DNA from: Ureaplasma sp. Hg1
GTDB taxonomy: Bacteria; Bacillota_I; Bacilli_A; Mycoplasmatales; Mycoplasmoidaceae
Assembly (NCBI GenBank): GCA_021378535.1
Contig: JAACJV010000002.1
Location: forward strand, 27,876 to 91,875
Direction of reading: 5' to 3'
DNA: 64,000 nt
In this document: positions 957-18,688 of the stretch, in pieces
Numbering within the stretch: position 1 is the stretch's first letter
How the letters are laid out: each line of letters begins with the position of its first letter
Notes under the pieces: generated by a model
What the model saw: the letters and a program-made list of their open reading frames with translations, nothing else
Databases searched by the model: none
Told to the model about the DNA's origin: nothing
Position numbers and translations under genes: made by a program

Positions 957-1439
957 ATGGCAGAAAATAAATTATTAAAAGAGAACATTGTATACATTGA
1001 TGAAAACGATGCTAAAACAATTGGAATCGTTGAAGGTGAACAACAATCTGTTTTTATTGATGGTAAAAATGTAGATGTTGTTTTCGTCGATGAACATGAT
1101 ATTTTACCAACAACCAAAAAAGAAAAAGAAATAATTCAAGAGGCTAGCGAATTAGCTATTAATCGCAAGGAAGATGAACACTTAGAAGAACGTGCTTTAG
1201 CTGTACGATCAGGTAAGACATATAATCTTTGAGAAAATATCAAGGAATTCTTTGCTCACGCTACAACTAATATTATTAATTACTTTAAAAACTTATTTAA
1301 TGGAACAAAGAAATTCGATGGAACTGATGTTTTTACAGACGAAGAAATTAGAATTATTGAAGAAGTTATTTCTGAGGTTAAAGCAAACAAAGATGAACCA
1401 ACATCAAGTGGTGTCGACTTAGCTGTTAACACTTATTAA
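957..1439 (+). CDS. hypothetical acidic protein, 160 aa
   Basis: Track ORF 957..1232 continues in frame through TGA (Trp) to TAA at 1437-1439. An AAGGA-like RBS lies upstream and a hairpin terminator follows. Confidence 0.6.
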
Positions 1440-1578: not shown

Positions 1579-2334
1579 ATGAAATTTTTTAAACATCAAA
1601 ATAACACTAAAAGGAATTCAAATGTAAATAAATACGCTTTAGCTGAAGACAATACACCTACAATGCAATACGTGATGAATAAAATTAGTAATCGTAATCG
1701 TATCACGCAAACTATTAACTATAAACCATTTTATGATACATCACCTATGCAACCACCACAAATGCGTGGTATTGCGCCTAATAGAGCTTTAGCTGGACTT
1801 CATGTTGTTGAACCAATTGTAGAACCATTCCCTCGCGGCGGTAGACTAAACTATAATGACGTTAAAGTAGCACCATTACTTTATATGAACGGGCGAGGCA
1901 CTAGAGTTAATCTTAAAACCATAGATGCATCAATTCCTTATGAAACAATCCAATACGGGTTTAATGTTCATGATGTTCGTAAGCCATTAGTTTATGCTGG
2001 AAACATTGGATTGAATCATGAGTTTAGAACAATAAACACAAGCATTGATAATAGTGATTTAGAGCGTTCAAGTCAAATCAGAAGTTTAAGTTTAGTTAAT
2101 CCATTATTTTTAAATCACAGAGCCAATTATCATAACGAAGCACCAACATATCATTTAAATATTCCAGAACCTAAATTACCGCGATTAACACCGTATGATC
2201 TTTTTGAAGATTTAAAACACGCACAAGAATATAATGCTAATTTTCCTAAATTACACCGAGAAAATAATTTAATAAACCCCGATGATGATTATGATATTGT
2301 ACGTCATCGTGTACGTCAATATAACGAGTGATAA
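1579..2334 (+). CDS. hypothetical protein, 251 aa (Pro/Asn-rich, no recognised domain)
   Basis: The track ORF ends at TGA 2329-2331, which is immediately followed by TAA 2332-2334. GAGGGG RBS lies upstream of the ATG at 1579. Confidence 0.6.
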
Positions 2335-2755: not shown

Positions 2756-5700
2756 ATGGCAAAATATAATGATATCCAAAATCGGGATTTTAGAAAAGCA
2801 GAAAAAGCTCCATCTGCAGTAGAATTAACTAGAAATATCGATAATTTTGGTGTTACATTAAAACTTAAAGAAGATGTACTTTTGAACTTAACAAAAACAC
2901 CAGAAGGGAAGATGTACGTTGATCAAGATAAAAGTAGTTTTTGAGGCGTTAATGCAATGTATAGTTTTGGGGAAACAGCACCGCAAAATGAAATTGATAA
3001 AATTAACATCGTTAAACATTATGATCCTAAAAATGATGTACATACTTTAAATTTATTGCGAGCAGAAGCAAATAAAATTATTACTGCGGCAAAAGCAGAA
3101 TATAAAAAAAAGTCGCTACATGCAAAACTTTTAAGTGATAAAAAAATTACTTTCGCAGAAATTAAAGCTAGCCATTTATTATCTAAAGCAAAGGGAATTG
3201 AAATTACTTATGTTGATCGTCAAAATGAAGAAGTACGCAAGCGTGAAGCTTTACTATTGATTGATGAGTGAAAAGAAAAAGCTGTTGAAAATAATTCTAC
3301 TCGTTTAGAATATTTGACACAAAGAGAAGAAAAATCACATGAAAAACTAAAAGGTCATGAAATGAGTGAAAGAGCTATTGCTGAAGAAAGACTTCTAGAA
3401 AGAGAAGTTTATGCTAAAGCACATTTAGAATGAGAAAAAGAAAAAGCTATCACATTGTCAAAAGGAATGTATTTTAATGTACCGCCTCCAATTCACAAGA
3501 AAATTTTAGGAACAAGAAATAATTACAAAGACGAATTAAAATATTCAACAATTAGTGAACTTAAAGGAGACCGAGTAATTAATTTATTAAATAATAAAGA
3601 AAGCATAAACGATGTTGATTATATTGATTCAACAAAACGCGGTAATGCTTTAAGTAAATTTAATAAATTTACAAAAAACCCTAAAACACATGCACTTGAA
3701 AGTAGAATGGATACCACAACTAGACGTAACCCACATGTCTACATCGTTGATGAAGATATATACGAAAGTCAATTACGCAAAAACAATTATATTGATGCAA
3801 AAAAAGAACGGTTTGAAATAATGGTTGATGCACGTATGTATGCCCCATTCAAAGAATACCTTCACGTTGAATGAAACGAAGAAGATTCAAATGATGAAAT
3901 TAAATACCAAAATCAGAAGAAATTGGCAAAAGTTCGAAGTGATTCAGAAGACGTTCAACGCTATTATTTAAATAAAGAAGCTAAAGAGGAAGCCTTACGT
4001 AAATATAACGAAAATGCCGGCGAAAGAGAACCTTCATATTACTCTGTTGAGGATTGATCAGATAATGAGTATATCAACGGAGCAAAACAAGATGGCATAT
4101 TTAAACGTTGATTTAAATCTAAAAAAGAACAAAATTATGAACAATCATTAAATTTTAGAGATACAGAAGAATTTGATGCAGAAACTTCTAATATGTATTT
4201 AAATGATAAAAATGAAATTAATGAATTAAAATTATATTTAGCTAAAAATCAAAATTATATTGATGTTTATGATGGTCAACTTTTAGACCGTACACGTTTA
4301 ATTGATGATAAGTTTTACGCTTCAATTGATCATATTATACCTTTAGAATTGAGCGGAGATGATTCAATTAGTAATAAGGTTCTAACTAAAACTGAACTTC
4401 ATTACAGTAAGGGTGACTTAACTCCTTTTGAATGGATGGATGATGAAAACTTTGATTTATTTTATGAAGAAGTTACAAAGTTATTGAAAGGCAAAGGACG
4501 TGAAAATAAAAAGCGTCTAAGAAATCTTATATTTATTAACAATGCTAAACATGAAGAATATTTAGATGAAGATAATCAAGATTTTAGTAGTTACGAACAA
4601 TATGACGATGAAGATTATCAAGGAAATTCACGTGACCAATATAAGATACAAAAAGCTAATGTTCTATTACGAAAACTTCCAATTCATCCCATTATTCATG
4701 ACGAACCATCAAAGCTATTGCAACACGGAATTAGAACGACAGATGCAATTAGAGCTTTTCAGCGTTTAAATGCTAATGACATTTACGCAGATAAAGAAAA
4801 GCAAAATATTTTAAATAAATTAAAATATGTTTGTGATGAAAATCGTAAGCAAGAAAATGCTTTTAGACATAATCAAGAAAAATCAAAACAATTGGATGAT
4901 TATGTTAAGGTAAAAGCAGATGAATTAAAGGCAAATTTTGTATCAAGTAAAACGAAATTATCTACAAAAAATTTCAATAAAGACCAAAAAATAGATGAAC
5001 GATATCGTAATATTTCTGAAACTTTATTTGAAAAATTTTCTATAGAACGACAAATGATAGATGAAAAAGAGGAAAATCTTCGCAACCGAGAGGAAGCACT
5101 TGAAATTCGTAACGAAGCTATCACTAAAGAAAAAATATTAAGTCATTTAGAAAAAGCTAATGTACGAGAAATTAAAACTTTACATCGCTTAAAAAATAAA
5201 TTGGATCAAAATAATAAAAAGTATAACTTTAATATTCCAACATTTGATTTTCCTTTCGCAAATAAATTGTCAGAAGTCGGCGGAGAAAAATATTTAAATT
5301 TGAAAAAAATTAATGATAAATTAGTTTTACAATGGATTTCAGAGGAAATTCGTGAAAATCAATTGGATGAAGACGAAGATATTAAAGTTGATGGTACTAC
5401 ATCTATTATAGAAAAAGCTTCAAAATTCATTGACGGCTTTAGAGTTGGTGATATTGATAATAAAGTCGAAATTATTAATGAATCATTACCAAATAATATT
5501 ACTAAAATTGTTGTTCTTGAAAAATATCGTCATAAAGATGAAATAGAACAAATTGAATTTTTAAGAGCTTTGGCTAAATCTATCGTTACTGATGCTGCAG
5601 ATGCCGCATTGTTGCAAGAAGCAAGAACTGTTGAGCAAGCTCACATCGAACTAGAAGAAAAGATAGAAGAAGCTAAAGTATATTTAAATAAATGTGAAGT

Positions 5701-6811
5701 TATTGAAGAAATGATTGATCGTCGTAAAAGTTTCTACGAAAAAAGTTTGAAGGAAGCATGGGTTGATAACAAAAATAAAGAACGTGAATGAAACCGTATT
5801 ATCAAATCTGAAAAACTTGAAAATGCAAAACAAGTTAATGTACTACGAAAACAAGCACAAGCTGATTTACGAGCTCAACTTCATAATTCCTTAAATGCAG
5901 ATGGTTCAATACAAAATATTCATTTAGATATACAAAATGAATTTAAACATTCTCCTGAGGCAATTAAAATTAACCAACGACGAATTCGTATGTTAGAACA
6001 AGATTTAAATATGCCTATTTTCCGTGAAGGTGATCAAGAGAAAAAGAGAAAAAGAATTCAAGGTTCAGAGACTCCATCAACTACTAGTCAAAAAGTTGGA
6101 AAATACTTTGGAATGATGAAGGAAAAGTTTATAGAGGCATCAGCTGATACTGAACCTAATATAGACGAACTAATTGGCACAAAAGAAAAGTTGCGACTTC
6201 CAACACAAGAAAAATTTAGGGGAGTGGATATTGATGCTGATGCTAAAATTATTGAATTTAATGACCCGCTATCTATATCTAGAAATCAATCTATCCCAAC
6301 AACAACCTTAGTTGGTAATAACAGTGAATATGAAAATATATTAAACACTAATAATGAGTATGAATTAGATGAATATCAGGATGAAATTAGTAATGATGCG
6401 TTTATACCAACTCCAATTATGGTAGGTGCAAATGGAAGTGATGCTCCTAATATGCAATTTAATGCACCAAATGAAATGTTTGAACCAAATCTTGACGCTT
6501 CAGCAAATCAAGATGAAATTGAAAATATTATTATTGATCCACTAACTATTCCTAGTGTAGGAGACTATAATGGTGGGATGGAAACCCCGATTGAGCAATT
6601 GCTTAGTAATTGGGAAAAGGAAACAAATGAAATTTCTAAGTCTTTAGATGATTTGAGTAATGATTGAAATAATGGAGTTGGACAAAAAAAAGTTGCTCAA
6701 CGTCAAAAAGAAGATCAAACACAAATAAATAATGGTGTGGATTTTAAAAGTAAAACAATGGATGAATTAGAGGAAGAAGAACTAATTGATAAAAGTATTT
6801 TAAATCATTAG
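2756..6811 (+). CDS. large (1351 aa) Lys/Glu-rich coiled-coil protein containing a Cas9-type HNH nuclease module
   Basis: Track ORFs 2756, 2957, 3455, 4193 and 5990 all share one frame. I read the gaps codon by codon and they contain only TGA, with no TAA or TAG. GAGGG RBS lies before the ATG at 2756 and the TAG stop is at 6809-6811. The HNH motif IDHIIP...DDSISNKVL...HYSKGDLTP lies at nt ~4256-4440. Confidence 0.8.
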
Positions 6812-6816
6812 TAATA

Positions 6817-6857
6817 CATCAAAAATAGCATCTTCAAAGAGGGTGTTATTTTTGATG
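6817..6857 (+). other. 11-bp stem-loop between the large HNH protein gene and the next gene (possible terminator or attenuator)
   Basis: CATCAAAAATA (6817-6827) is perfectly complementary to TATTTTTGATG (6847-6857), with a ~19-nt loop. The structure ends 4 nt before the GGAGGAG RBS of the next gene. Confidence 0.4.
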
Positions 6858-6870
6858 GTGTGGAGGAGAA

Positions 6871-7971
6871 ATGAAACTAAAGTTTGTAATGCCTGAAGAG
6901 ATAATGATTGGCAATAAAACCATTATGAATATGAAATCGCGGATCGAAGGATCTGGTTTTAATAATGTCTTATTTATAATTTCAACGAACTTTAAAAAAA
7001 ATAGTTACTTAAAACAATTACTTAAGAAATATAAAAATAAATTAGTTATTTGAATCGATCCTCTAACATTAGAAGAAGACATAATATTTAAAATAAATGA
7101 TGATTTAGATAAACAACATTTGGAATTTGCCTTTATTATTGGTAATAGTCATATAGTTAATGTTGCGAAGGCTTCGCTTTTAGCCTACATAAATAATATA
7201 AATAATATTTATGGCGATTGTAGCGACGAAATGTTTGATCGTACAATTCCATTTGCAGTTGTTGCTTCTGAACCATATGATGCAACGGGTGCTTCGAATT
7301 GTGTTAAATTGATGCACGATAATAACTCATTATCTTATTATAGTGATGCATTTATTCCACGTTATTTTATTGTAGATTTTAAAATAATGCAAATTCAAAA
7401 TCATGTATCTTTTAAAAACTATTTATTATCAAAAATTATTATCGGACTAGATTTATATTTTTTAGATAAAAAAAATATAATAGGCAGTAGTTTATCATTA
7501 GGGGCCGTTGAATTAATTTATCACGAGGCTCAAAATATTATTAACAACGAAATGAGTTATGAAACATTATATGTATTAGCACATGCCGATTATTCACTAG
7601 TTATGGCTGAAAATATGTTGCGCCAAAATAATCGAATTACAATTAGAGAATGTATTGAATATTTATATTGTAATTTAAATATTAAAAACGCACCTTTAGA
7701 TTTAGTTGTTGCATCTTTATGTTTTAACGTGCTAAATTATTACAATAATAAGAATGAAGATTTTAGTATTATTGCAAAAAAATTATTCATTAACTTTGAT
7801 GATAATAGTTACGAAGAGGTTTATCAAGCTATTCAAGTATGATGTCACAAACTTAATATTAAAACTGATGCAATGTGTTGACTTAGCGAACCGGATTGAC
7901 GCATTCTTTATGAGGCAATCGTTAGTCACAGGGACAAGAAAATAATTAAGGAACTAAGGAATATTTTATAG
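6871..7971 (+). CDS. iron-containing alcohol dehydrogenase-like protein, degenerate paralog (366 aa)
   Basis: ORFs 6871 and 7120 share a frame and continue through three TGA codons to TAG 7969-7971. The N-terminus FVMPEEIMIGNKTI...VLFIIS follows the Fe-ADH pattern. The GGGS nucleotide-binding loop is replaced by IGNSHIVNVAKA. GGAGGAG RBS is present. Confidence 0.6.
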
Positions 7972-7979
7972 GTAAATTT

Positions 7980-9221
7980 ATGAAACGCAATAGATATAAA
8001 AAATCAATTTTATATTACAATAGTAAAACTTCGTTTTTATTAAATTCGAAATCTGAATCTTCTATTATCCAAATGCCACCACTTACTCTGATGGGTAATT
8101 ACGTTTTAGAAGATCTTGGACAAGAATTAAGTCAATTGAACGCTAGTAAAGTTTTAGTTGTTACAGATAAAAATTTAGCTCTTTCTCCTATCTTTAAACG
8201 ACTTGTAGATTCGCTCAACAAATGGCATATTAGTTACGCCTTATTTGATGATGTTATTCCAAATCCAACAATAGGAATAGTTAATAAAATTAAATTAAAT
8301 TTTTTAGAATACAAATGTAATTATTTAATTTCATTAGGTGGGGGATCGACACATGATGCTGCTAAAGCGGCAGCAATTATTATTTCTAATAATAAAATAG
8401 CAAATTTAAACGGAATAAATAAACTTAAGTTTCCACCCGTCGGAGTTGTTTGTGTTAATACAACAACCGGAACTGGTTCTGAAGCAAATAGCATAAGTGT
8501 AATAACAAATGAAAAAAAATCAATTAAGATAACTTCTATAGATAAATTTAATATACCAATTTTAACAGTTTCAGACCCTAGTGTAACAGTTTCTCAGATG
8601 GCTAATGTAACCGCCAATGGAGGCATGAATATTTTAGCATTAGCAATAGAGGCCTACTTATCATTTAATCACCAGCCATTAACTGATGTGTTATCAATTA
8701 GATGCATCGAACTAGTTGGACAAAACCTAGTAAATTCTTATGAGACATTAAAAAACAACGACTATCGTTCAAATATGATGGCCGCTTCATATATGGTAGG
8801 TTTAGCTCATTCAGGATCAGGATCGGGATATATCAATTCCATTAGTAACGCTCTTAGTGGGTCATATAATACAGCACATGGTGTTGCGAGTGCAATTTTA
8901 TTACCTTACGTTATCAGTTTTTTAGCTCAAGAAAAAAAACTTGCAAAACGAATAAATCGGATAAATTATGCACTTAATAATCAATCTTATAATAAAAATA
9001 TTAAACAATCTACTAATGAGTGCATTCGTTCACTTTTTGAATTGAATTATAAATTGAAAATACCTAATACATTAAAAGGCATTAATGTTACGCGTGATAA
9101 TTTTAAACAATTAAGTAAAAAAATTATGAACGATAACACTTGTTTAAATAGTCCTAAGTATTTTTCTAGAAATGATATCATTAAAATATTAGAACACGCT
9201 TATAGTGGAAAATTATTTTAA
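7980..9221 (+). CDS. iron-containing (group III) alcohol dehydrogenase family protein
   Basis: Contains LGGGSTHDAAKAAAII and ...TAHGVASAILLPYV motifs typical of Fe-ADH. It is a single uninterrupted ORF. The start could instead be ATG 8073 (MPPLTLMGNY...). Confidence 0.85.
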   Translation: MKRNRYKKSILYYNSKTSFLLNSKSESSIIQMPPLTLMGNYVLEDLGQELSQLNASKVLVVTDKNLALSPIFKRLVDSLNKWHISYALFDDVIPNPTIGIVNKIKLNFLEYKCNYLISLGGGSTHDAAKAAAIIISNNKIANLNGINKLKFPPVGVVCVNTTTGTGSEANSISVITNEKKSIKITSIDKFNIPILTVSDPSVTVSQMANVTANGGMNILALAIEAYLSFNHQPLTDVLSIRCIELVGQNLVNSYETLKNNDYRSNMMAASYMVGLAHSGSGSGYINSISNALSGSYNTAHGVASAILLPYVISFLAQEKKLAKRINRINYALNNQSYNKNIKQSTNECIRSLFELNYKLKIPNTLKGINVTRDNFKQLSKKIMNDNTCLNSPKYFSRNDIIKILEHAYSGKLF

Positions 9222-9222
9222 A

Positions 9223-9257
9223 AATAAGAACTTTCACATTGCGTGAAAGTTCTTATT
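9223..9257. terminator. bidirectional terminator between convergent Fe-ADH gene and rpsT
   Basis: 15-bp perfect stem AATAAGAACTTTCAC / GTGAAAGTTCTTATT with loop ATTGC. It is flanked by A-run and T-run and overlaps the rpsT stop codon. Confidence 0.7.
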
Positions 9258-9498
9258 TATTAGCTTTATTGATTGCTATAGCAGTTCGTGATTTAAGACG
9301 ATTTGCTTTATTTTTATGAATTCGCCCTTTACTTGCTGTACGGTCAATCATTGAATATGTTTGATCAATTTTACTTGCATCATTAGAATTTCTAGTTTGC
9401 TTTACATTTTTTCTTAATGCTGACATATTTGCATGTGCTGCTTTATGTTTTTTAACATCTTGATTATGACTTCTTTCATTTGATTTAATATTTGCCAT
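9253..9498 (-). CDS. rpsT: 30S ribosomal protein S20
   Basis: MANIKSNERSHNQDVKKHKAAH...KGRIHKNKANRLKSR is typical S20. GGAGGAGG RBS lies 7 nt upstream of ATG 9498; the track ORF start at 9516 is probably too far upstream. Confidence 0.9.
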   Translation of the reverse strand: MANIKSNERSHNQDVKKHKAAHANMSALRKNVKQTRNSNDASKIDQTYSMIDRTASKGRIHKNKANRLKSRTAIAINKANK

Positions 9499-11016: not shown

Positions 11017-11955
11017 ATGAATGTAGTTTTCATGGGGACACCTTTTATTGCTGCTGAATGCCTTAAAACATTGTTATCAATGGATGTCCATATTATCGCA
11101 GTTGTGAGTCAACCTGATAAAGCTAAAGATCGTAAACAAAATTTCATTTTTAGCCCTGTTAAACAATTAGCACTTGATAATAATTTGTTATTATTTCAAC
11201 CTAATTTAATTAAAGAAATAAAAAGTGATTTAGAAAAACTTAATGTTAATATGATTATCACATGTGCCTATGGACAATTTATTCCAGATAATATTTTGAG
11301 ATTACCCGATAAAGGTGCATACAACATTCATGCATCACTACTCCCTAAACTCAGAGGTGGAGCGCCCATTCATTGAGCAATCATTGAACAATCTAAATTG
11401 ACTGGAATAACTATCATGAAAATGGTTAAAAAAATGGATGCTGGGGATATTATTTTTCAAAGTTCGTTTAAAATAGATTGTAATGAAACTTATCAAACTC
11501 TATTATTGCGTTTAATAGATTTGGCTAAATTAATGCTACGTAATCACTATAAGGAATTAGCAACATCAAATTTTAAAACAACTATACAAAATAACGATGA
11601 GGTTACATTTGGATACAATATTAATAAGCCAACAATGATAATTGATTTTAATAAGCCATCAAACGAAATAGACGCTCTAATTCGAGGGTTGTATGATAAA
11701 CCGATAGCGCGTTGCTATTATAATGGTTTGTTAGTAAAAATTCATAGAGCAAGAATTAGTTCAGATTTATCTAAAGTAAAATCGGGTACAATTACTAAAA
11801 TTACTAAAAATGGAATCTGTATAGCTTCAAAGGATTATGATATCGAAATATTTGAGATACAGCTACCGAATAAAAAAGTTTTAGCGGTAAAAGAATTAAT
11901 TAATGGCTCACATCCTTTTAAGATAGGAGGCGTTTGATATAATGAAGAAATCTAA
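11017..11955 (+). CDS. fmt: methionyl-tRNA formyltransferase
   Basis: MNVVFMGTPFIAAECL...SQPDK...HASLLPKLRGGAPIHWAI motifs. GGAGG RBS lies 8 nt before ATG 11017. Two in-frame TGA codons occur and the TAA stop is at 11953-11955. Confidence 0.9.
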
Positions 11956-13888
11956 ATACATTGGTAAATATGATTATATTGGATATTACACAAAGCCTGA
12001 ATATATGTGATTTTTTAGTAATCACGAAATCCAAAAGGCTATTGAAACTAAGATAGCTCTGATAGATCGTGATAATGATAGTGAAGAAGATAAATCATCA
12101 GAAGAAGTAGATGCCTATAATTTATATCGTGAAGCATTGGAAAGCAAAGATATTGATGAAAACAACGCTCAAATTCTTGAGGGTAGAATTATTGACCAAA
12201 AATCCAAAAAATATATTATCAATCAATATGAAATTGATGTTATATATGATTTTGATGATTTAAAATATAGATATCAAAGCATGGAAGAATTAAGTATTTT
12301 AAGTATTCGTTTATTCAATGAAAACGAAAATATCATCATTTTTCAACCTGTTTTTATTAAGGATAAAATGATAACGAAACCTGATGCAGTTATAAAAAAA
12401 GATGGAATTATTAATTTGGTGGAAACAAAAGGTACTACAACTACAAAATCTCATCATTTTTTGGATATTTTCTTTCAACACAATGTATTGAAAGAACAGC
12501 CATGTTTCGAAAATTACGATATAGATTATTTTTTATGCATAGTACATTATTGTAAATTAGACAGGAATGATGTTTCTTTTGTCATAACACCATTTTTTAA
12601 TTATGTAAAATCCATTTCCTTCAATAAAAAAATAAAGGAATCAGTTAGTGAAAAAGATTGAATTGAATATAAATCAAAACAAAAGCTAGGGGAAGGTTAT
12701 TTGTTTAAATTAATGGAATCATTTCCATTTAGTCTAACAAACGCTGTACATAATGATGTTAGTGAATTACTAATAAAGCGCGATGTAGTAGGAAACACCC
12801 AAGCAAAACTCGCAATAGATCGATTCATTATTTTATTAAATAGTGTTGTTTTAGAGTTTAATCAAGTCATTAAAAAATTAGTTAATCATCGTAAACAAAT
12901 GGGTTCAGAAACATTAATTAATCTAACATTGTTCAAACCATCAAAAGGTGTTTTAGGTTCTTTTAAGGACTGTAATTTTTGACCTTTATTAAGAAAACTT
13001 TATCCGATGCTATCATATAATGTAATAGATTATTCAGGTAAAATAATAGATCTTAGAAAGTTCGGTCTTGAGAATATTAAAACATCAACAAATCTTAACC
13101 AATTGATAAAGCAACCTAAGAAGAATCCTGACTTTTATATTAATTTGTTTATTAATGATAAAAACCCGTTTGTAATTTCATCACAAGCACGTAGCTTATT
13201 AAACAAGTTAAAATCAAAAAAAGTGTATTTTGATTTTGAAACTATCAATTCATCCATCAGAGCTATAGATGATAGTTTACCTTTTATGCAAATTGTGACA
13301 CAATGTTCAATTTTAAAAGATCATGGACTAGGAATCGAAAAGGAAATATGTAATAATTTAGTAATTGATCCCGTAAATATTAACACTAAATGATTCATGC
13401 AAATTATTGATGATTTATATGAAGGTGAGGATTATAGTTATGTTGTGTATAATAAGAGCTTTGAAAGTTCAAGACTTATTGAAATGGCAGCTTTTATTAG
13501 AAGCCCCCTTTACGATGCTAAAGTGATTACGATTACTAATAATTTATATGATTTAGCAGATTTTTTTAACATTAGTTCAAATACTGGATATCGTATAGTC
13601 GTTAAAGAATTACACGGTTTTTATTCTATTAAAAAAGTTTTGCCTTTGGTTAAAAAATATAATCCAGAAATTTTCGAAAAAACAAAATGTTTAGAATATG
13701 ATACATTGGATGTCTATAATGGTTTAGTATGTCAACAAGCGACAATGCGACGCTTCTTTCAAAGCATGGGTGACGAAGAATGGAAGGAACTAGAGAAAAA
13801 TTTAAAAGTGTATTGTGAAAATGATGTTCGAGCTATGGTTGCGGTTGAATACTTTGTTAAGCTACTTTTAACTAAATATAATATTTAA
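11942..13888 (+). CDS. DUF2779-like protein: N-terminal PD-(D/E)xK (Cas4/RecB-like) nuclease fold plus C-terminal DEDDy 3'-5' exonuclease fold (648 aa)
   Basis: ORFs 12137, 12701, 13007 and 13397 share a frame with ATG 11942. Motifs are KPDAV...LVETKG (D...ExK), then VYFDFET (exo I) and YCENDVRAM (exo III, Y-x3-D). The start overlaps the fmt 3' end by 14 nt. Confidence 0.7.
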
Positions 13889-14104: not shown

Positions 14105-17100
14105 ATGAGTAGAACTTTATTAGAATTACGAACAATTTATAAGACATATGAACTTGAGGGCAAGGAAATAAAGGTCTTAAACAACATTAATTTAGATCTT
14201 GAGGAACACGTTTCTCTAGCTATTTTAGGTAATATTGATAGTGGTAAAACATCACTTATTAAAATAATGGCGCATTATATTGAACCATCTTTTGGTGAAG
14301 TAGAATTATTTCCATTCGATAAAACTCAGCCAGCTTTAGTTAATAGTGTTTTTCATGAGACATCACCATTCGAAGTAGCTAGAAAAAAACTAGGACCATC
14401 AACTACTGTTGGAGAGATGATTGAACTTATTTATGATTCAAGAAGAAATTCAAGCGAAAAAGAAGAATTGGAAAAATTAATCGAGGCTAGTGGCTTAATA
14501 AAAGTAAATGAAGAAGAAACAATAGATAAATTAAGTCATTCAAATTACAATAAAGCTAAATTAATTTCAATTTTAGCTAATAAACCAGCACTTGCTTTTT
14601 TTGACGATGCAATTAGTGATTTAAAATACGGAAATAAAATGAAATTCACTAAATTAATGGGAGAATATATTAGAAAACACAAAATGACTGTTGTAATGAC
14701 AGCGAACGACCCAGAAGATGTTGTACATATTTGTGATGAGTATATTGTTTTAGCAAAAGGTAAAATTGCGACATTTGGTAATGTTGAAATTCCTGATGGT
14801 TTTGTTAATTTTTCTGAAAGTGTTAGTAAATGAGTTGAAGTTGGTAAGGTTGAAAATCACGAAAACGTTGTTACATGATTTAAAAACATATTCAGTTCTA
14901 ATAGAAAAATTCTTGAAGAACGAAGATTACGAGACGCTGCGAAAAATCAATTATTATTACCAGGCGGAGAACCCGTTGATGTACCTAATGCTAAAGTAAT
15001 TGAAGCTAGTGGAAAATTAAATGATGATGATATCGAAGATAACATTGATAACCCAAATGTTGCGCCATCAGGGCGGGGTTCTTTTTTGGATCGTATCCGA
15101 GTTAGAGAAGGTCGTAATGAAGAGGCAGAAGAACCGCAAAATGACGCTCCTAGCGGTATTGAAACAAATAATGACGAACGTCGTAGCCAAATGGATAGTA
15201 TGAAGACAATGCAATCATTCACTGTTAAAGAAGGCTCAACCGATGAACAAAAAGAGTATCGTAAAAAAATAAAAGAAATTGGTAATGACGATGAATCAAG
15301 TAAAAGAAGTGAACGTGCTGCACGATTAGCTAGAATTCAAGCAATTGAGGGTAAAAATAGTCCTAGTAGCAATAACCCTGAAACGGCTAATTTTGCCAAC
15401 GAAACTCCTGAACAAAGACTAGCAAAGCGTAAAGAGATGCTAGAAAGAATCAAGGCTAGAGAAGGCGGCGAAGCAACCCCAGATAATACAAATGATCATA
15501 AACCAGAATCAGCAGAAGAAAGACTAGCAAAGCGTAAAGCGATGCTAGAAAGAATCAAGGCTAGAGAAAATGGTGAAGCAACTCCAGACAATACAAATGA
15601 TCATGAAGCAGAAACTCCAGAACAAAGACTAGCAAAGCGTAAAGCGATGCTAGAAAGAATCAAAGCTAGAGAAAATGGTGAAGCAACTCCAGATGATACA
15701 AACGATCATGAAGCAGAAACTCCAGAACAAAGACTAGCAAAGCGTAAAGCGATGCTAGAAAGAATCAAGGCTAAAGAAAATGGCGAAGCAACTCCAGACG
15801 ATACAAATGATCACGAAGCAGAAACTCCTGAACAAAGAATAGCAAACCGTAAAGCGATGCTACAAAGAATTAAAGATAAAGAAGAAAACCCAGAATCATC
15901 AAATGAAGAGATAGTATCTAAAGAAGAAAATGAATCTGATGCTCATAAACATTTATCGCCTGCAGAACAAAGAGCTATTCAACGTAAACAAATGTTGGAA
16001 CGTATCAAAGAAAAACAAGCAAGTATTAAAGCGGGCCAAGTTGAAGTATCAAAAAAGAAGGAAGTTTTAAGTGCAGCTTCAATGGAACGTCGAAATAGAT
16101 TGGCCGCTATTAAAGCACAACAATCTAAAAAATCAACTATTCAATTAAAATTAGAAAAAGCAAAAGCAAAAAAAGAAGCTGAAGCATTAGCTCAAAATAA
16201 TGCAAATGTTAACGCTAATTCATTTGCTACTGAACAACATGTAAAAGAAGTGGATAATGTTGCACAAAAGCCGCAGCTTCCTAAATCACCTAGTGCTGAA
16301 CGTGCAGAAAGATTAGCGCGAATTAAAGCTAAGGAAAATAATTTATCTCCAGGAACAGCAATTACGGCTGAAAAACCGAAATTGGAAAAACCAGTTTCAC
16401 CATCACCAGTTGTTAAATCTGATGCTGCAATTGAACGTGCAGAAAGATTGGCACGTATTAAAGCAAAACAGCAATCAATTGCAAATAGTACCAAAATAGA
16501 ACACAAACCAACTACAAATACAATTGGAAATTCTACAGATCACAGTACTAAAACCCACGCTCCTACTGCTACCCACGCTCCCACTACCCACGTTCCTACT
16601 ACTCACGTTCCTACTACTCACGCTCCTACCACTACGAATGTTCATAAAGCTGCGAAACCAGTTATTGTTAGAAAAGAAAAATTAGTTGCAGAACAATCTC
16701 ATAATTTGGATGCAAAAGCAGCAGCACGTAAGGCAATGTTAGAAAGAATTAAAGAACGAGAAGTTACAACAACAAAATCTGACGTTAAAACTACAAATGC
16801 TAAAGCGATGATTGATCGTATAAAAGCAAGAGAAGGCAAACTTGTCATCGATGAAAATACTAAACCTAAAAAACCTCTTTCAATCGAAAGACAAAAGCAA
16901 AATATTGAACGTATTGCAGCAATGGGCAAAGGTAAAGATGATTTCAAGGAAATTGATCATATCAAAACAGAACGTAATCGGGCAAATCGCTTGGCACAAG
17001 CAGAGATTCAAAGAGATCAAACAATTAAATCATCAAGAATCCAAAAAGAAAATGCCGGACGAGCTCAAGTTCAACATGCCGAACAATTAAGAATTCAGAT

Positions 17101-18688
17101 GCAAGAATTAGAACAATTAAAAAAGAAACAACTTGAAATTGCTGAGCAAAAATCTGAAATACAAAGATTGGCACAAGAGGCTGAAATGGCGAAAATGCGT
17201 CAAATAAATAATAGTAACATTCGTAACGCAAGAATTAGCGATGAAAAATCACTTTTGAATCAACAAGCCTTAATGCAAAAAGTAAATTTCCGTGCACAGG
17301 AAATTGAAGATAGATCAAAACTTGAATTAAATAGAATTGAAAAAGAACATTCTATTAAAATAGGAATCTTACAAAATAGATTAGACGAAGAAGAAAAACT
17401 TCGTAAAATTAAAGAAAAAGAAGCTCAATTATCTTTAGAATCTGCAGTCAAACAAGCTGAACTTGTTTCCACAAGAATTGCGAATGAAAAATCTCTGGAA
17501 TTAAAAAGTACTCGAGAATCGCAATTAGCTAATCAATTATTAGAAATTGAAAAACTTGTTAAACAAATGGAAGCTTCTAGCGGATCTCGTAACGATGAAT
17601 TGATGAAAAACGCGATTGAGATGAAATATAAGGTTTTACATCAACAAGAATTAGCAAATAGAGCCGCTCGTGATGCAACGCTTGCGAATCAAAAATTAGC
17701 TAGACAAGAAAGAATAGCTAAAGACTTACGTATTCAAGCTGAACGAACTAGAAAATATAAAGTTGAGGCCGAACGTAAAAATTCAGAACATATGAATGAT
17801 ACCAATGTTGCTGGTCTTAATGAAATCAAGTTACAAAAGATGAGAATTGAAAAAATGTCAAATGATATTTCTGAAATCAAAGATTTAATTAAAGAAAGCA
17901 TTTCAAGTGGAGACATTAATGCAATGAATCGTATTAATTCATTAATTACGAATTCAAGCGTAAATAAAAATTTGAGTCCTTCCCAAATTATGGTGGGTCA
18001 CAATCCTGGAGGTAATTATAACTTAAAACCAGTATCTCAATACACACCGGGAGCTCAAGCCACTAAAGTAGTTGGGGCAAATGGAGTTGTGATGTCCAAT
18101 GTAGTAAGAACTGCGCCACATTATAAACCAATGAAGAATCCAATGATTGTAGCAAATAGAGCTAATAGTAAACAATATTTAACCGGTATTGATAAACAAA
18201 TTTGAGAATCAGAACAACGTTTGATGGATTTGCGCTTATTAAAACATAGAGAGGCAGAAAGTATTGTTCAACAACAAATGGAAGACGAACGTCAAAGAAT
18301 ACAAGCTGAGCGATTACGTCTAGAAGAAGATGAAATTATTAATGAACGAAAATATCTTCATCAACAACAAAATAGCTATTTACAAAACAAACACTTAACT
18401 CGATATCATGATTACGGTACATCTAACGCTTCGTACTATCCTCAAAGAAAACCAATGCAATATACTGCTGGCGATAGAGAAAAAATTCAATCAAATAAAT
18501 CTGGCGATATTAATGCATATGAATATGGCAGATTAATTAATCAGGCAACGCCGTATAAATCAACATCAAAATATCAAGGTTCTACTCAACGAGTAAGTCA
18601 ATCTGCGCAACGGTTAAGTGAAGCGTTCCGCGAAGCTAATAGACCTCTTAATTACGAAGATATGGAAAATTATAGAAAAAAAAAATAA
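14105..18688 (+). CDS. 1527-aa chimeric protein: N-terminal degenerate ABC-type ATPase domain fused to a repeat-rich coiled-coil region
   Basis: ORFs 14105, 15086 and 18221 are in one frame. I read 14834..15086 codon by codon and found only TGA. Walker A GNIDSGKT is intact. The signature is LSHSN, Walker B is FFDD and the H-loop is TAND. I saw no signal peptide or TM segment. Confidence 0.8.
15401..15880 (+). repeat. in-frame tandem repeat, 105-bp unit (35 aa, ETPEQRLAKRKAMLERIKARENGEATPDNTNDHEA), about 4.6 copies
   Basis: AGACTAGCAAAGCGTAAAG recurs at 15416, 15521, 15626 and 15731, with a diverged copy at 15836. The period is exactly 105 bp, and the internal copies are nearly identical at nucleotide level. 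Confidence 0.9.
16553..16636 (+). repeat. in-frame 15-bp repeat encoding TH(A/V)PT x5
   Basis: ACCCACGCTCCTACT-type units encode THAPTATHAPTTHVPTTHVPTTHAPTT. Confidence 0.8.

Follow-up and report, generated by a model that had tools for sequence, protein, structure and literature searches.

We analysed a 64-kb stretch of DNA (64,000 nucleotides, hereafter the window) from Ureaplasma sp. Hg1, in which a large coding sequence (CDS; 2756..6811, + strand) encodes a protein of 1351 aa under genetic code 4. We suggest that this is, with high probability, an unrelated mollicute scaffold protein that captured the HNH module of a Cas9, which was then kept in the lineage of Ureaplasma sp. Hg1 and Hg2. 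In brief, the Cas9-derived module (4112..4582, +; residues 453-609) comprises an L1-like helix, the HNH core and L2-like helices, and the sequence on both sides of it belongs to a protein family with members that lack the module altogether.

The first-pass annotation of this DNA had recognised by eye a Cas9-type HNH domain at residues ~500-590, and the profile searches bear this out. The peptide quoted there is present unaltered, nt 4250-4520 encoding residues 499-589. Pfam HNH_4 (PF13395) matches the core (4262..4429, +; residues 503-558) over its full model, positions 1-54, with an E value of 4e-9 and 36.8 bits against a gathering cut-off of 22. The NCBIfam Cas9 equivalog TIGR01865 aligns to residues 455-609 on model positions 527-670 of 1070; E is 1.3e-21 when the whole protein is searched and 3e-23 when the module is searched by itself. 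The whole-protein score, 76.7 bits, is under the curated cut-off of 100. The Cas9d model of NCBIfam matches at E 5e-15. All 22 sequence matches in the PDB are Cas9 proteins or isolated Cas9 HNH domains (best E 4e-11), and hhalign against an alignment of 20 Cas9 sequences gave a probability of 99.2%, over residues 483-595 only. Judged from the sequence, the Cas9-type assignment of the module is far beyond chance. The solved Cas9 HNH domains that were matched (8hnt, 7enh, 5vgb, 6jdq) are 35-50% identical to the module, and at this level of identity it would be expected to adopt their beta-beta-alpha metal fold. With the HNH domain of small type II Cas9 proteins it shares, at 35-50% identity, the whole HNH insert with both linker helices and the motifs Y-x-G, D-H, DDS-x-x-NKVL, K-G-x-x-TP-(F/Y)-E-W and a trailing KK-R-x-L, all of which the annotation had already listed (the fourth as K-G-x-x-TP).

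The limits of the module are sharp. A profile of 20 Cas9 proteins, compared with the window protein, matched solely at profile positions 513-660, a stretch bounded by the RuvC-II 'IELAR' strand on one side and the RuvC-III 'RNLxDTRY' strand on the other that includes neither of them. As the match is bounded by RuvC-II and RuvC-III in this way, the shared piece is exactly the Cas9 HNH insert together with the two linker helices. We also searched 1.84 billion representative proteins exhaustively with phmmer and obtained 188 matches. With three exceptions, the 150 listed align to residues ~430-640 of the window protein and to no other part; most of them are 1000-1150 aa long and match at about their residues 520-720, or are pieces of proteins of that kind. 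Those sampled matches that carried a name or were compared with profiles are Cas9. One of the best is the named Cas9 of a Malacoplasma sp., and the gene of the closest full-length match among those listed (P0005) adjoins cas1 and cas2.

The remaining three listed matches are the ortholog in Hg2 (P0002) and two proteins from SRA assemblies, P0006 and P0009, and it is these that reveal the nature of the scaffold. P0006 (941 aa) matches with E 3.5e-10 in three stretches starting at residues 19-243 (best 19-243) and is a complete open reading frame (ORF) in locus L004. P0009 (947 aa) matches with E 2.6e-9 over residues 633-1079 and is the tail of a 1159-aa code-4 ORF in locus L003 that was truncated by code-11 gene calling. 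Both loci have 27-30% G+C. In a multiple alignment the window protein, P0002, P0006 and the L003 ORF are collinear over both halves of the scaffold. The N-terminal half (2756..3850, +; residues 1-365), which belongs to no known family, is common to P0006 and the L003 ORF and has the conserved blocks DK(S/T)S..GV, Y(V/I)(V/I)DED.Y and F.I.V.A.MYA. In the C-terminal half (4646..6205, +; residues 631-1150) the conserved blocks, from residue 631 to ~1100, are LLxxLP..P, IIN(E/K)S(L/I)P and (T/S)K(I/V).VL(E/D)K(Y/F); in the window protein they appear as an LPxxP block at residues 641-645 and the block IINESLP..TKIVVLEKY. P0006 and the L003 ORF are 23-27% identical to the window protein in both halves.

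What differs between these proteins is the linker that joins the halves. The ..MYA and LLxxLP blocks are 273 aa apart in the window protein and 276 aa apart in Hg2; the distance is 191 aa in the L003 ORF and 116 aa in P0006. In the window protein this linker holds the module and, directly before it, an acidic variable linker (3851..4111, +; residues 366-452), whereas in the L003 ORF it is a Pro/Ala/Lys-rich low-complexity stretch and in P0006 it is short and unrelated. The distant homologs also lack the acidic Asn-rich tail (6206..6808, +; residues 1151-1351), which is less conserved between the orthologs (ratio of nonsynonymous to synonymous substitution rates, dN/dS, 0.18). P0006 and the L003 ORF both scored negatively against the HNH and the full Cas9 profiles. 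A possible decayed HNH remnant in the P0006 linker, suggested by MAFFT columns (NQSYTIYYDE..., KSRLNYL), was rejected; Smith-Waterman comparison with shuffled sequences gave z 0.3-0.7, and the HNH hidden Markov model gave E 0.14.

The relationship between the scaffold genes extends to their surroundings. A 160-aa gene (957..1439, +) is conserved beside the scaffold gene in Hg2 and L004, and its product is 41% identical (E 8e-27) to that of L004 88..636. The 251-aa gene between it and the large gene (1579..2334, +) has a counterpart at the same position in Hg2 and in L004 (659-1045); its similarity to the L004 counterpart is weak (E 0.03), and the two are at most possible homologs. L003 begins at the contig start, and the comparison of upstream genes rests on Hg2 and L004. 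From the collinearity and the homologous upstream gene we conclude that P0006 is a positional ortholog of the window protein. The three genes are tightly packed in L004 and, together with window 957-1439 and 1579-2334, look like a conserved mollicute cluster. Neither upstream gene matched a family in the libraries tried, the one sub-threshold match being to Pfam, for the 160-aa protein.

The backbone belongs to no family in Pfam, NCBIfam or PADLOC, and a profile search of the PDB returned weak, unrelated matches (best E 0.21). The window protein has no transmembrane segment, Walker A motif or secretion signal. AlphaFold was run on the two halves from four-row alignments. The N part (residues 1-623, including the HNH) had a mean predicted local distance difference test (pLDDT) score of 36 and the domain was not resolved; the C part had a pLDDT of 50, and two long helices were its only confident features (70-85). 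The helices, predicted at 680-791 and 929-1044, are ~110 residues long, and the most conserved C-terminal block lies in the non-helical segment between them. When the C part was compared with the PDB by Foldseek, nothing matched at E <= 0.001 (best E 2.6). With so few homologs the models were too poor to show or exclude Cas9 lobes or a beta-beta-alpha fold. The annotation had described the sequence as coiled-coil-like; the two long helices agree with this, although no fold is identified thereby. We read the protein as one of a family of large, mostly alpha-helical proteins of the cytoplasm that is uncharacterised and specific to mollicutes.

Word-indexed searches with the full protein, with a four-sequence profile from which the HNH had been deleted and with the 160-aa neighbour returned self or near-identical matches only; for the large protein they covered 8000 candidates, apparently filled by Lys/Glu-rich words. 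It should be noted that L003 21-3500 and L004 88-3882 had been called with code 11, which split the L003 gene into products of 125, 62 and 947 aa. Code-11 calling systematically fragments such mollicute proteins in SRA collections and hides members from protein searches.

Outside the HNH module we found no part of Cas9. Regular expressions for RuvC-I and RuvC-III had no match in the window protein. When all six reading frames of the 64 kb were translated with code 4 and searched with the full-length Cas9 profile, with filters off, the HNH module was the sole match; both results agree with the annotation, which had seen neither motif. There is no profile similarity to the bridge helix, the REC lobe or the protospacer-adjacent-motif-interacting (PI) domain. 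The annotation had likewise seen no cas1, cas2 or CRISPR array in the window. A phmmer search with one Cas1 and one Cas2, both from the P0005 locus, gave nothing below E 0.5 in the window, and the repeat scans revealed neither interspaced direct repeats nor CRISPR-like tandem arrays in the 64 kb. No Rfam family reached its gathering threshold in the same stretch. The gene neighbourhood of the large gene is housekeeping in character and syntenic with Hg2. The 'orphan' status of the module holds for these 64 kb only. With no RuvC, bridge helix, REC or PI region, and no candidate for a guide RNA, the protein cannot be RNA-guided.

The reading frame itself had been proposed by merging across TGA codons, and this proposal stands. 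The frame (frame 1) of 2756..6811 contains eight in-frame stops, every one of them TGA, and ends on a TAG stop. All eight TGA codons lie opposite Trp in the NCBI-translated ortholog P0002, in columns that are invariant in the pairwise alignment. We therefore regard 2756..6811 as a single 1351-aa ORF under code 4, in which the eight TGA codons are read as Trp; its translation is identical to database protein P0001. Under the same code the whole window is gene-dense. Its G+C content is 24-34% along its length and ~28% in most 2-kb windows. P0002 (1348 aa, 77% identity) is the only close ortholog and is encoded on contig JAACJW010000001 of a metagenome-assembled genome (MAG), Ureaplasma sp. Hg2. 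The gene order in Hg2 is that of the window: the 160-aa gene, a gene of ~250 aa, the large gene, a 366-aa gene, Fe-ADH and rpsT, followed by a 99-aa gene, DUF5385, fmt, DUF2779 and an ABC protein. The ortholog and this shared gene order indicate that the CDS is real, chromosomal and conserved in a small Ureaplasma-like clade. One scan of genome contigs showed no locus beyond the Hg2 MAG, and two scans of metagenome contigs showed no further locus. An antisense code-4 ORF of 248 aa (4900-5646, -) lies within the large gene; nothing marks it as a gene, and the composition of the sequence probably accounts for it.

Three other explanations of this protein have to be weighed. The simplest is that it is an artefact, either a chimeric assembly or a string of pseudogenes joined by reading through TGA. 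Under code 11 the frame is indeed broken eight times, but every break is a TGA aligned to Trp in the ortholog, the whole window is gene-dense under code 4, and an independent assembly has the same gene, of 1348 aa, in the same context and with a dN/dS of 0.085; we consider the chance of an artefact negligible. The module could also be a generic HNH domain, of the McrA, homing-endonuclease or IscB type, that resembles Cas9 through the common motif. The HNH_4 family is not restricted to Cas9, and the best Cas9 matches of the module are just 35-48% identical; the proteins they come from are AT-rich-like in composition in some cases and GC-rich-like in others, an indication that the source organisms are diverse. 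With such low identity and mixed composition the donor cannot be named. Such a generic origin is nonetheless very improbable. The annotation had proposed to compare Cas9-type with generic HNH models, and there the Cas9 models win: generic HNH (PF01844, E 0.058) and HNH_5 stay below their cut-offs, against E 1e-21 to 3e-23 for the Cas9 models. The match also runs ~50 residues beyond the core on each side, into linker helices that are specific to Cas9, and most listed phmmer matches are Cas9-like in length and match position, the sampled ones being Cas9. No IscB family of NCBIfam matched the window protein at E <= 1, the presence of an IscB model in that library not having been verified.

The third alternative is that the entire 1351-aa protein descends from Cas9 and that its RuvC, REC and PI regions have diverged beyond recognition. 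It would fit the Cas9-like size of the protein and the similar relative position of the HNH (503-558 of 1351, compared with ~550-650 of ~1070). Against it, the backbone has collinear homologs without HNH, one of which shares the upstream gene; the HNH-deleted backbone aligns to Cas9 with an hhalign probability of 0.15%; the unfiltered Cas9 profile matches at positions 513-660 only; RuvC motifs are absent; and the flanks are conserved between the orthologs like the HNH or better, unlike decaying remnants. We give this alternative very little weight and regard it as close to refuted, the size of the protein being a coincidence. The annotation had offered a captured cassette and a remodelled Cas9 descendant as equally possible origins. 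The HNH-less collinear relatives, with the upstream gene they share, support the first and lead us to reject the second, and the hhalign result for the backbone points the same way.

We thus favour capture, and suggest that it came about as follows. Proteins of the scaffold family have an N-terminal half and a long-helix C-terminal half joined by a hypervariable linker, and in the lineage of Hg1 and Hg2 this linker carries a piece of ~157 residues from a type II Cas9, the HNH with its two flanking helices. The piece was probably copied out of a cas9 gene by illegitimate recombination, either from an AT-rich donor or so long ago that its base composition has since come to match that of the host. 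The module has 24.8% G+C and 11.5% G+C at third codon positions (GC3), compared with a GC3 of 15% for the gene; with an AT content no lower than that of the remaining gene, it points to an old acquisition or to an equally AT-rich donor. It would now be kept because it makes some contribution to the scaffold protein. The module may have been acquired in the branch of these two genomes, or it may be an older gain that other members have lost; in either case the protein is not a Cas9 descendant.

Between the two orthologs the module is at least as well conserved as the rest of the gene. Identity between the window protein and Hg2 is 78-90% in residues 501-600. The dN/dS is 0.044 in the HNH core, 0.085 over the whole gene and 0.18 in the C-terminal tail, values that are rough as dS is saturated (~1.6-2.3). 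The low value in the core indicates that the module is maintained under purifying selection.

The annotation had described the active site as intact, and this holds in part. For comparison we aligned 156 Cas9-type HNH domains from the phmmer matches to the module. The window protein keeps Y505 (found in 155/156 of these domains), D525 (147/156), H526 (155/156), N540 (156/156) and K552 (156/156), and likewise G507, P529, D535, D536, K541, T556, P557 and E559. D525 and H526 (GAT CAT; 4328..4333, +) are the metal ligand and the general base, and N540 (4373..4375, +) is the structural Asn of the motif. At the site of the last metal ligand, Asn in 153/156 Cas9-type domains and His in none of the 156, both orthologs have His (H549; 4400..4402, +). 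The annotation had noted this replacement of the last Asn by His and the canonical H-N-H arrangement that it gives, and it was right on both counts. A His at this site is the canonical metal ligand of classical HNH enzymes such as colicin E9 and McrA. The claim of an intact site is weakened by the fact that H549 is foreign to the Cas9 set, by the Hg2 ortholog and by the charge of the module. Hg2 has Tyr (TAT) in place of the general-base His (CAT), a residue present in 1/156 Cas9-type domains at this position; the TAT codon lies at nt 11582-11584 of the Hg2 locus (L001), encodes residue 528 of P0002 and differs from CAT in one substitution, C to T. Counted over 115-122 aligned residues, the module carries a net charge of -6 in the window protein and -8 in Hg2, whereas the Cas9-type set has a mean of +2 (standard deviation 3.3) and 2.7% of it is as acidic as the window module. 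The Tyr in Hg2, the unusual H549 and the acidic module together make nuclease activity doubtful.

We lean slightly towards the view that the module acts as a tethered, guide-independent His-Me finger that would bind nucleic acid or protein, with cleavage weak or dispensable. This reading is favoured by the loss of the general base in Hg2 while the rest of the domain is conserved, by the shift to acidic charge and by the unusual last ligand. The main competitor is an active nuclease, that is a guide-independent, metal-dependent nickase or nuclease that the coiled-coil scaffold would position on DNA, with H526 serving as base and D525 and H549 as metal ligands. Its roles might be, for example, nucleoid maintenance, repair, defence or nucleotide scavenging. 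The complete H-N-H set of D525, H526, N540 and H549 speaks for it, as do the agreement of Y505, G507, P529, K552 and P557 with the Cas9 consensus and the strong purifying selection on the core. We nevertheless think it somewhat improbable, since the ortholog has Tyr at the general base and the module is more acidic than 97% of Cas9 HNH modules. In addition, the HNH of Cas9 is activated through contacts with the rest of the enzyme and with the guide-target duplex, and the partners that activate it there are absent here. A scavenging role in particular is hard to reconcile with a protein that has no secretion signal or membrane anchor. The binding and nickase readings leave a remainder that falls to artefact and to other readings. 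More tentatively still, and with considerable doubt, the module might be a domesticated Cas9 nuclease domain that serves as a scaffold-delivered nickase, a high-affinity DNA clamp or an anti-CRISPR decoy.

Several points weigh against the reading of a captured and now mainly binding module. The window protein has the full D-H...N...H set, and H549 is compatible with metal binding. The Tyr of Hg2 comes from a MAG and could be a consensus error, the dN/dS values suffer from the saturation of dS, and the structure models (pLDDT 36 and 50) are too poor to confirm the fold. The family is represented by two HNH-bearing and two HNH-less members from three lineages, which leaves gain and loss elsewhere unrooted, and any role of the module in the scaffold protein is putative.

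Compared with known systems, the protein stands apart. Apart from the HNH itself it lacks each of the defining features of Cas9 that were tested, as well as those of IscB, which are a PLMP domain, a split RuvC with an HNH insert and an omega-RNA encoded next to it; it scores above the HNH_4 threshold of Pfam. Unlike in Cas9, the module is flanked by scaffold sequence and not by RuvC, it is not accompanied by a bridge helix, REC or PI domain, and no CRISPR or cas genes lie nearby in the 64-kb window; it also differs from Cas9 in the His in place of Asn as last ligand, in its net acidic charge and in the Tyr of Hg2 at the general base. The HNH is a movable insert in the IscB/IsrB/Cas9 lineage, in which IscB and IsrB are the transposon-encoded ancestors of Cas9; it is located inside RuvC in IscB and absent from IsrB (PMC8730458). 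Unlike IscB, the window protein has no RuvC fold and no sign of a guide RNA, there being no Rfam match in the window. With the DNases colicin E9/E7 and with McrA it shares, through H549, the order of His base, Asn and His metal ligand (PMC5714182), although its sequence is far closer to Cas9 and the match to PF01844 is below threshold. To the HNH-less members of the scaffold family it is alike in the collinear halves and conserved blocks and, for L004, in the 160-aa upstream gene, and it differs from them in the linker and in having the acidic C-terminal tail.

The exaptation of CRISPR parts is well documented and involves the reuse of whole effectors, arrays and RNAs; no case of a Cas9 HNH insert kept by an unrelated cellular protein is described in that account (PMC8730458). 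In the literature searched we found neither a Cas9-like HNH protein from Ureaplasma or Mycoplasma nor a Cas9 HNH insert in a cellular protein without RuvC, an absence that is no proof of novelty. What is new is the domain architecture, so far seen in two genomes; the HNH domain is known and the scaffold is uncharacterised. The protein would be a rare instance in which an unrelated protein of the cell has reused part of Cas9. If the module were a domesticated nickase, clamp or decoy, it would be the first case in which a housekeeping-type protein of the cell put a fragment of Cas9 to a new function, and also a natural stand-alone Cas9 HNH that folds and acts without the other parts of Cas9 in a genome-reduced bacterium. 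An active module would be a minimal natural Cas9 HNH with an H-N-H metal site in place of the usual H-N-N, of use to engineers of compact nickases and to those who study how the HNH depends on the remainder of Cas9. An inactive one would neatly illustrate how a nuclease fold can become a binding module. Active or not, it points to an uncharacterised but conserved three-gene cluster of mollicutes, whose large charged 'hypothetical' proteins are poorly understood, and it shows that code-11 gene calling hides such proteins. Its importance would rise if the module proved to be an autonomous nuclease, or if the scaffold family were widespread and important in mollicutes.

The large gene is followed directly by the 366-aa gene (6871-7971, +), which has a sub-threshold match to Fe-ADH (E 0.0016), and then by a 413-aa gene (7980-9221, +) whose Hg2 counterpart has a clear Fe-ADH match. 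The 366-aa gene looks like a degenerate tandem paralog of the 413-aa gene. Promoter-like sites are no commoner than expected by chance. Terminator-like hairpins were found at 2382-2399 and 9222-9258; they only suggest that the three genes in 2756-9221 form one transcription unit.

Further downstream, a DUF2779 protein of 648 aa (11942-13888, +; E 1e-23) is encoded directly after fmt, at the same position as in Hg2. Another large gene (14105-18688, +) encodes a protein of 1527 aa with an N-terminal ABC-ATPase domain (PF00005 in the Hg2 ortholog) and a very long charged tail. In this tail a 105-bp (35-aa) unit, ETPEQRLAKRKAMLERIKARENGEATPD.TNDHEA, is repeated in tandem approximately five times, and a 15-bp unit, THAPT, occurs five times; the repeats are located at 15401-15929 and 16553-16629 of the window. 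The tail may vary in size between strains. Inside the same gene an antisense ORF of 1123 aa (14545-17916) is probably a by-product of the biased composition.

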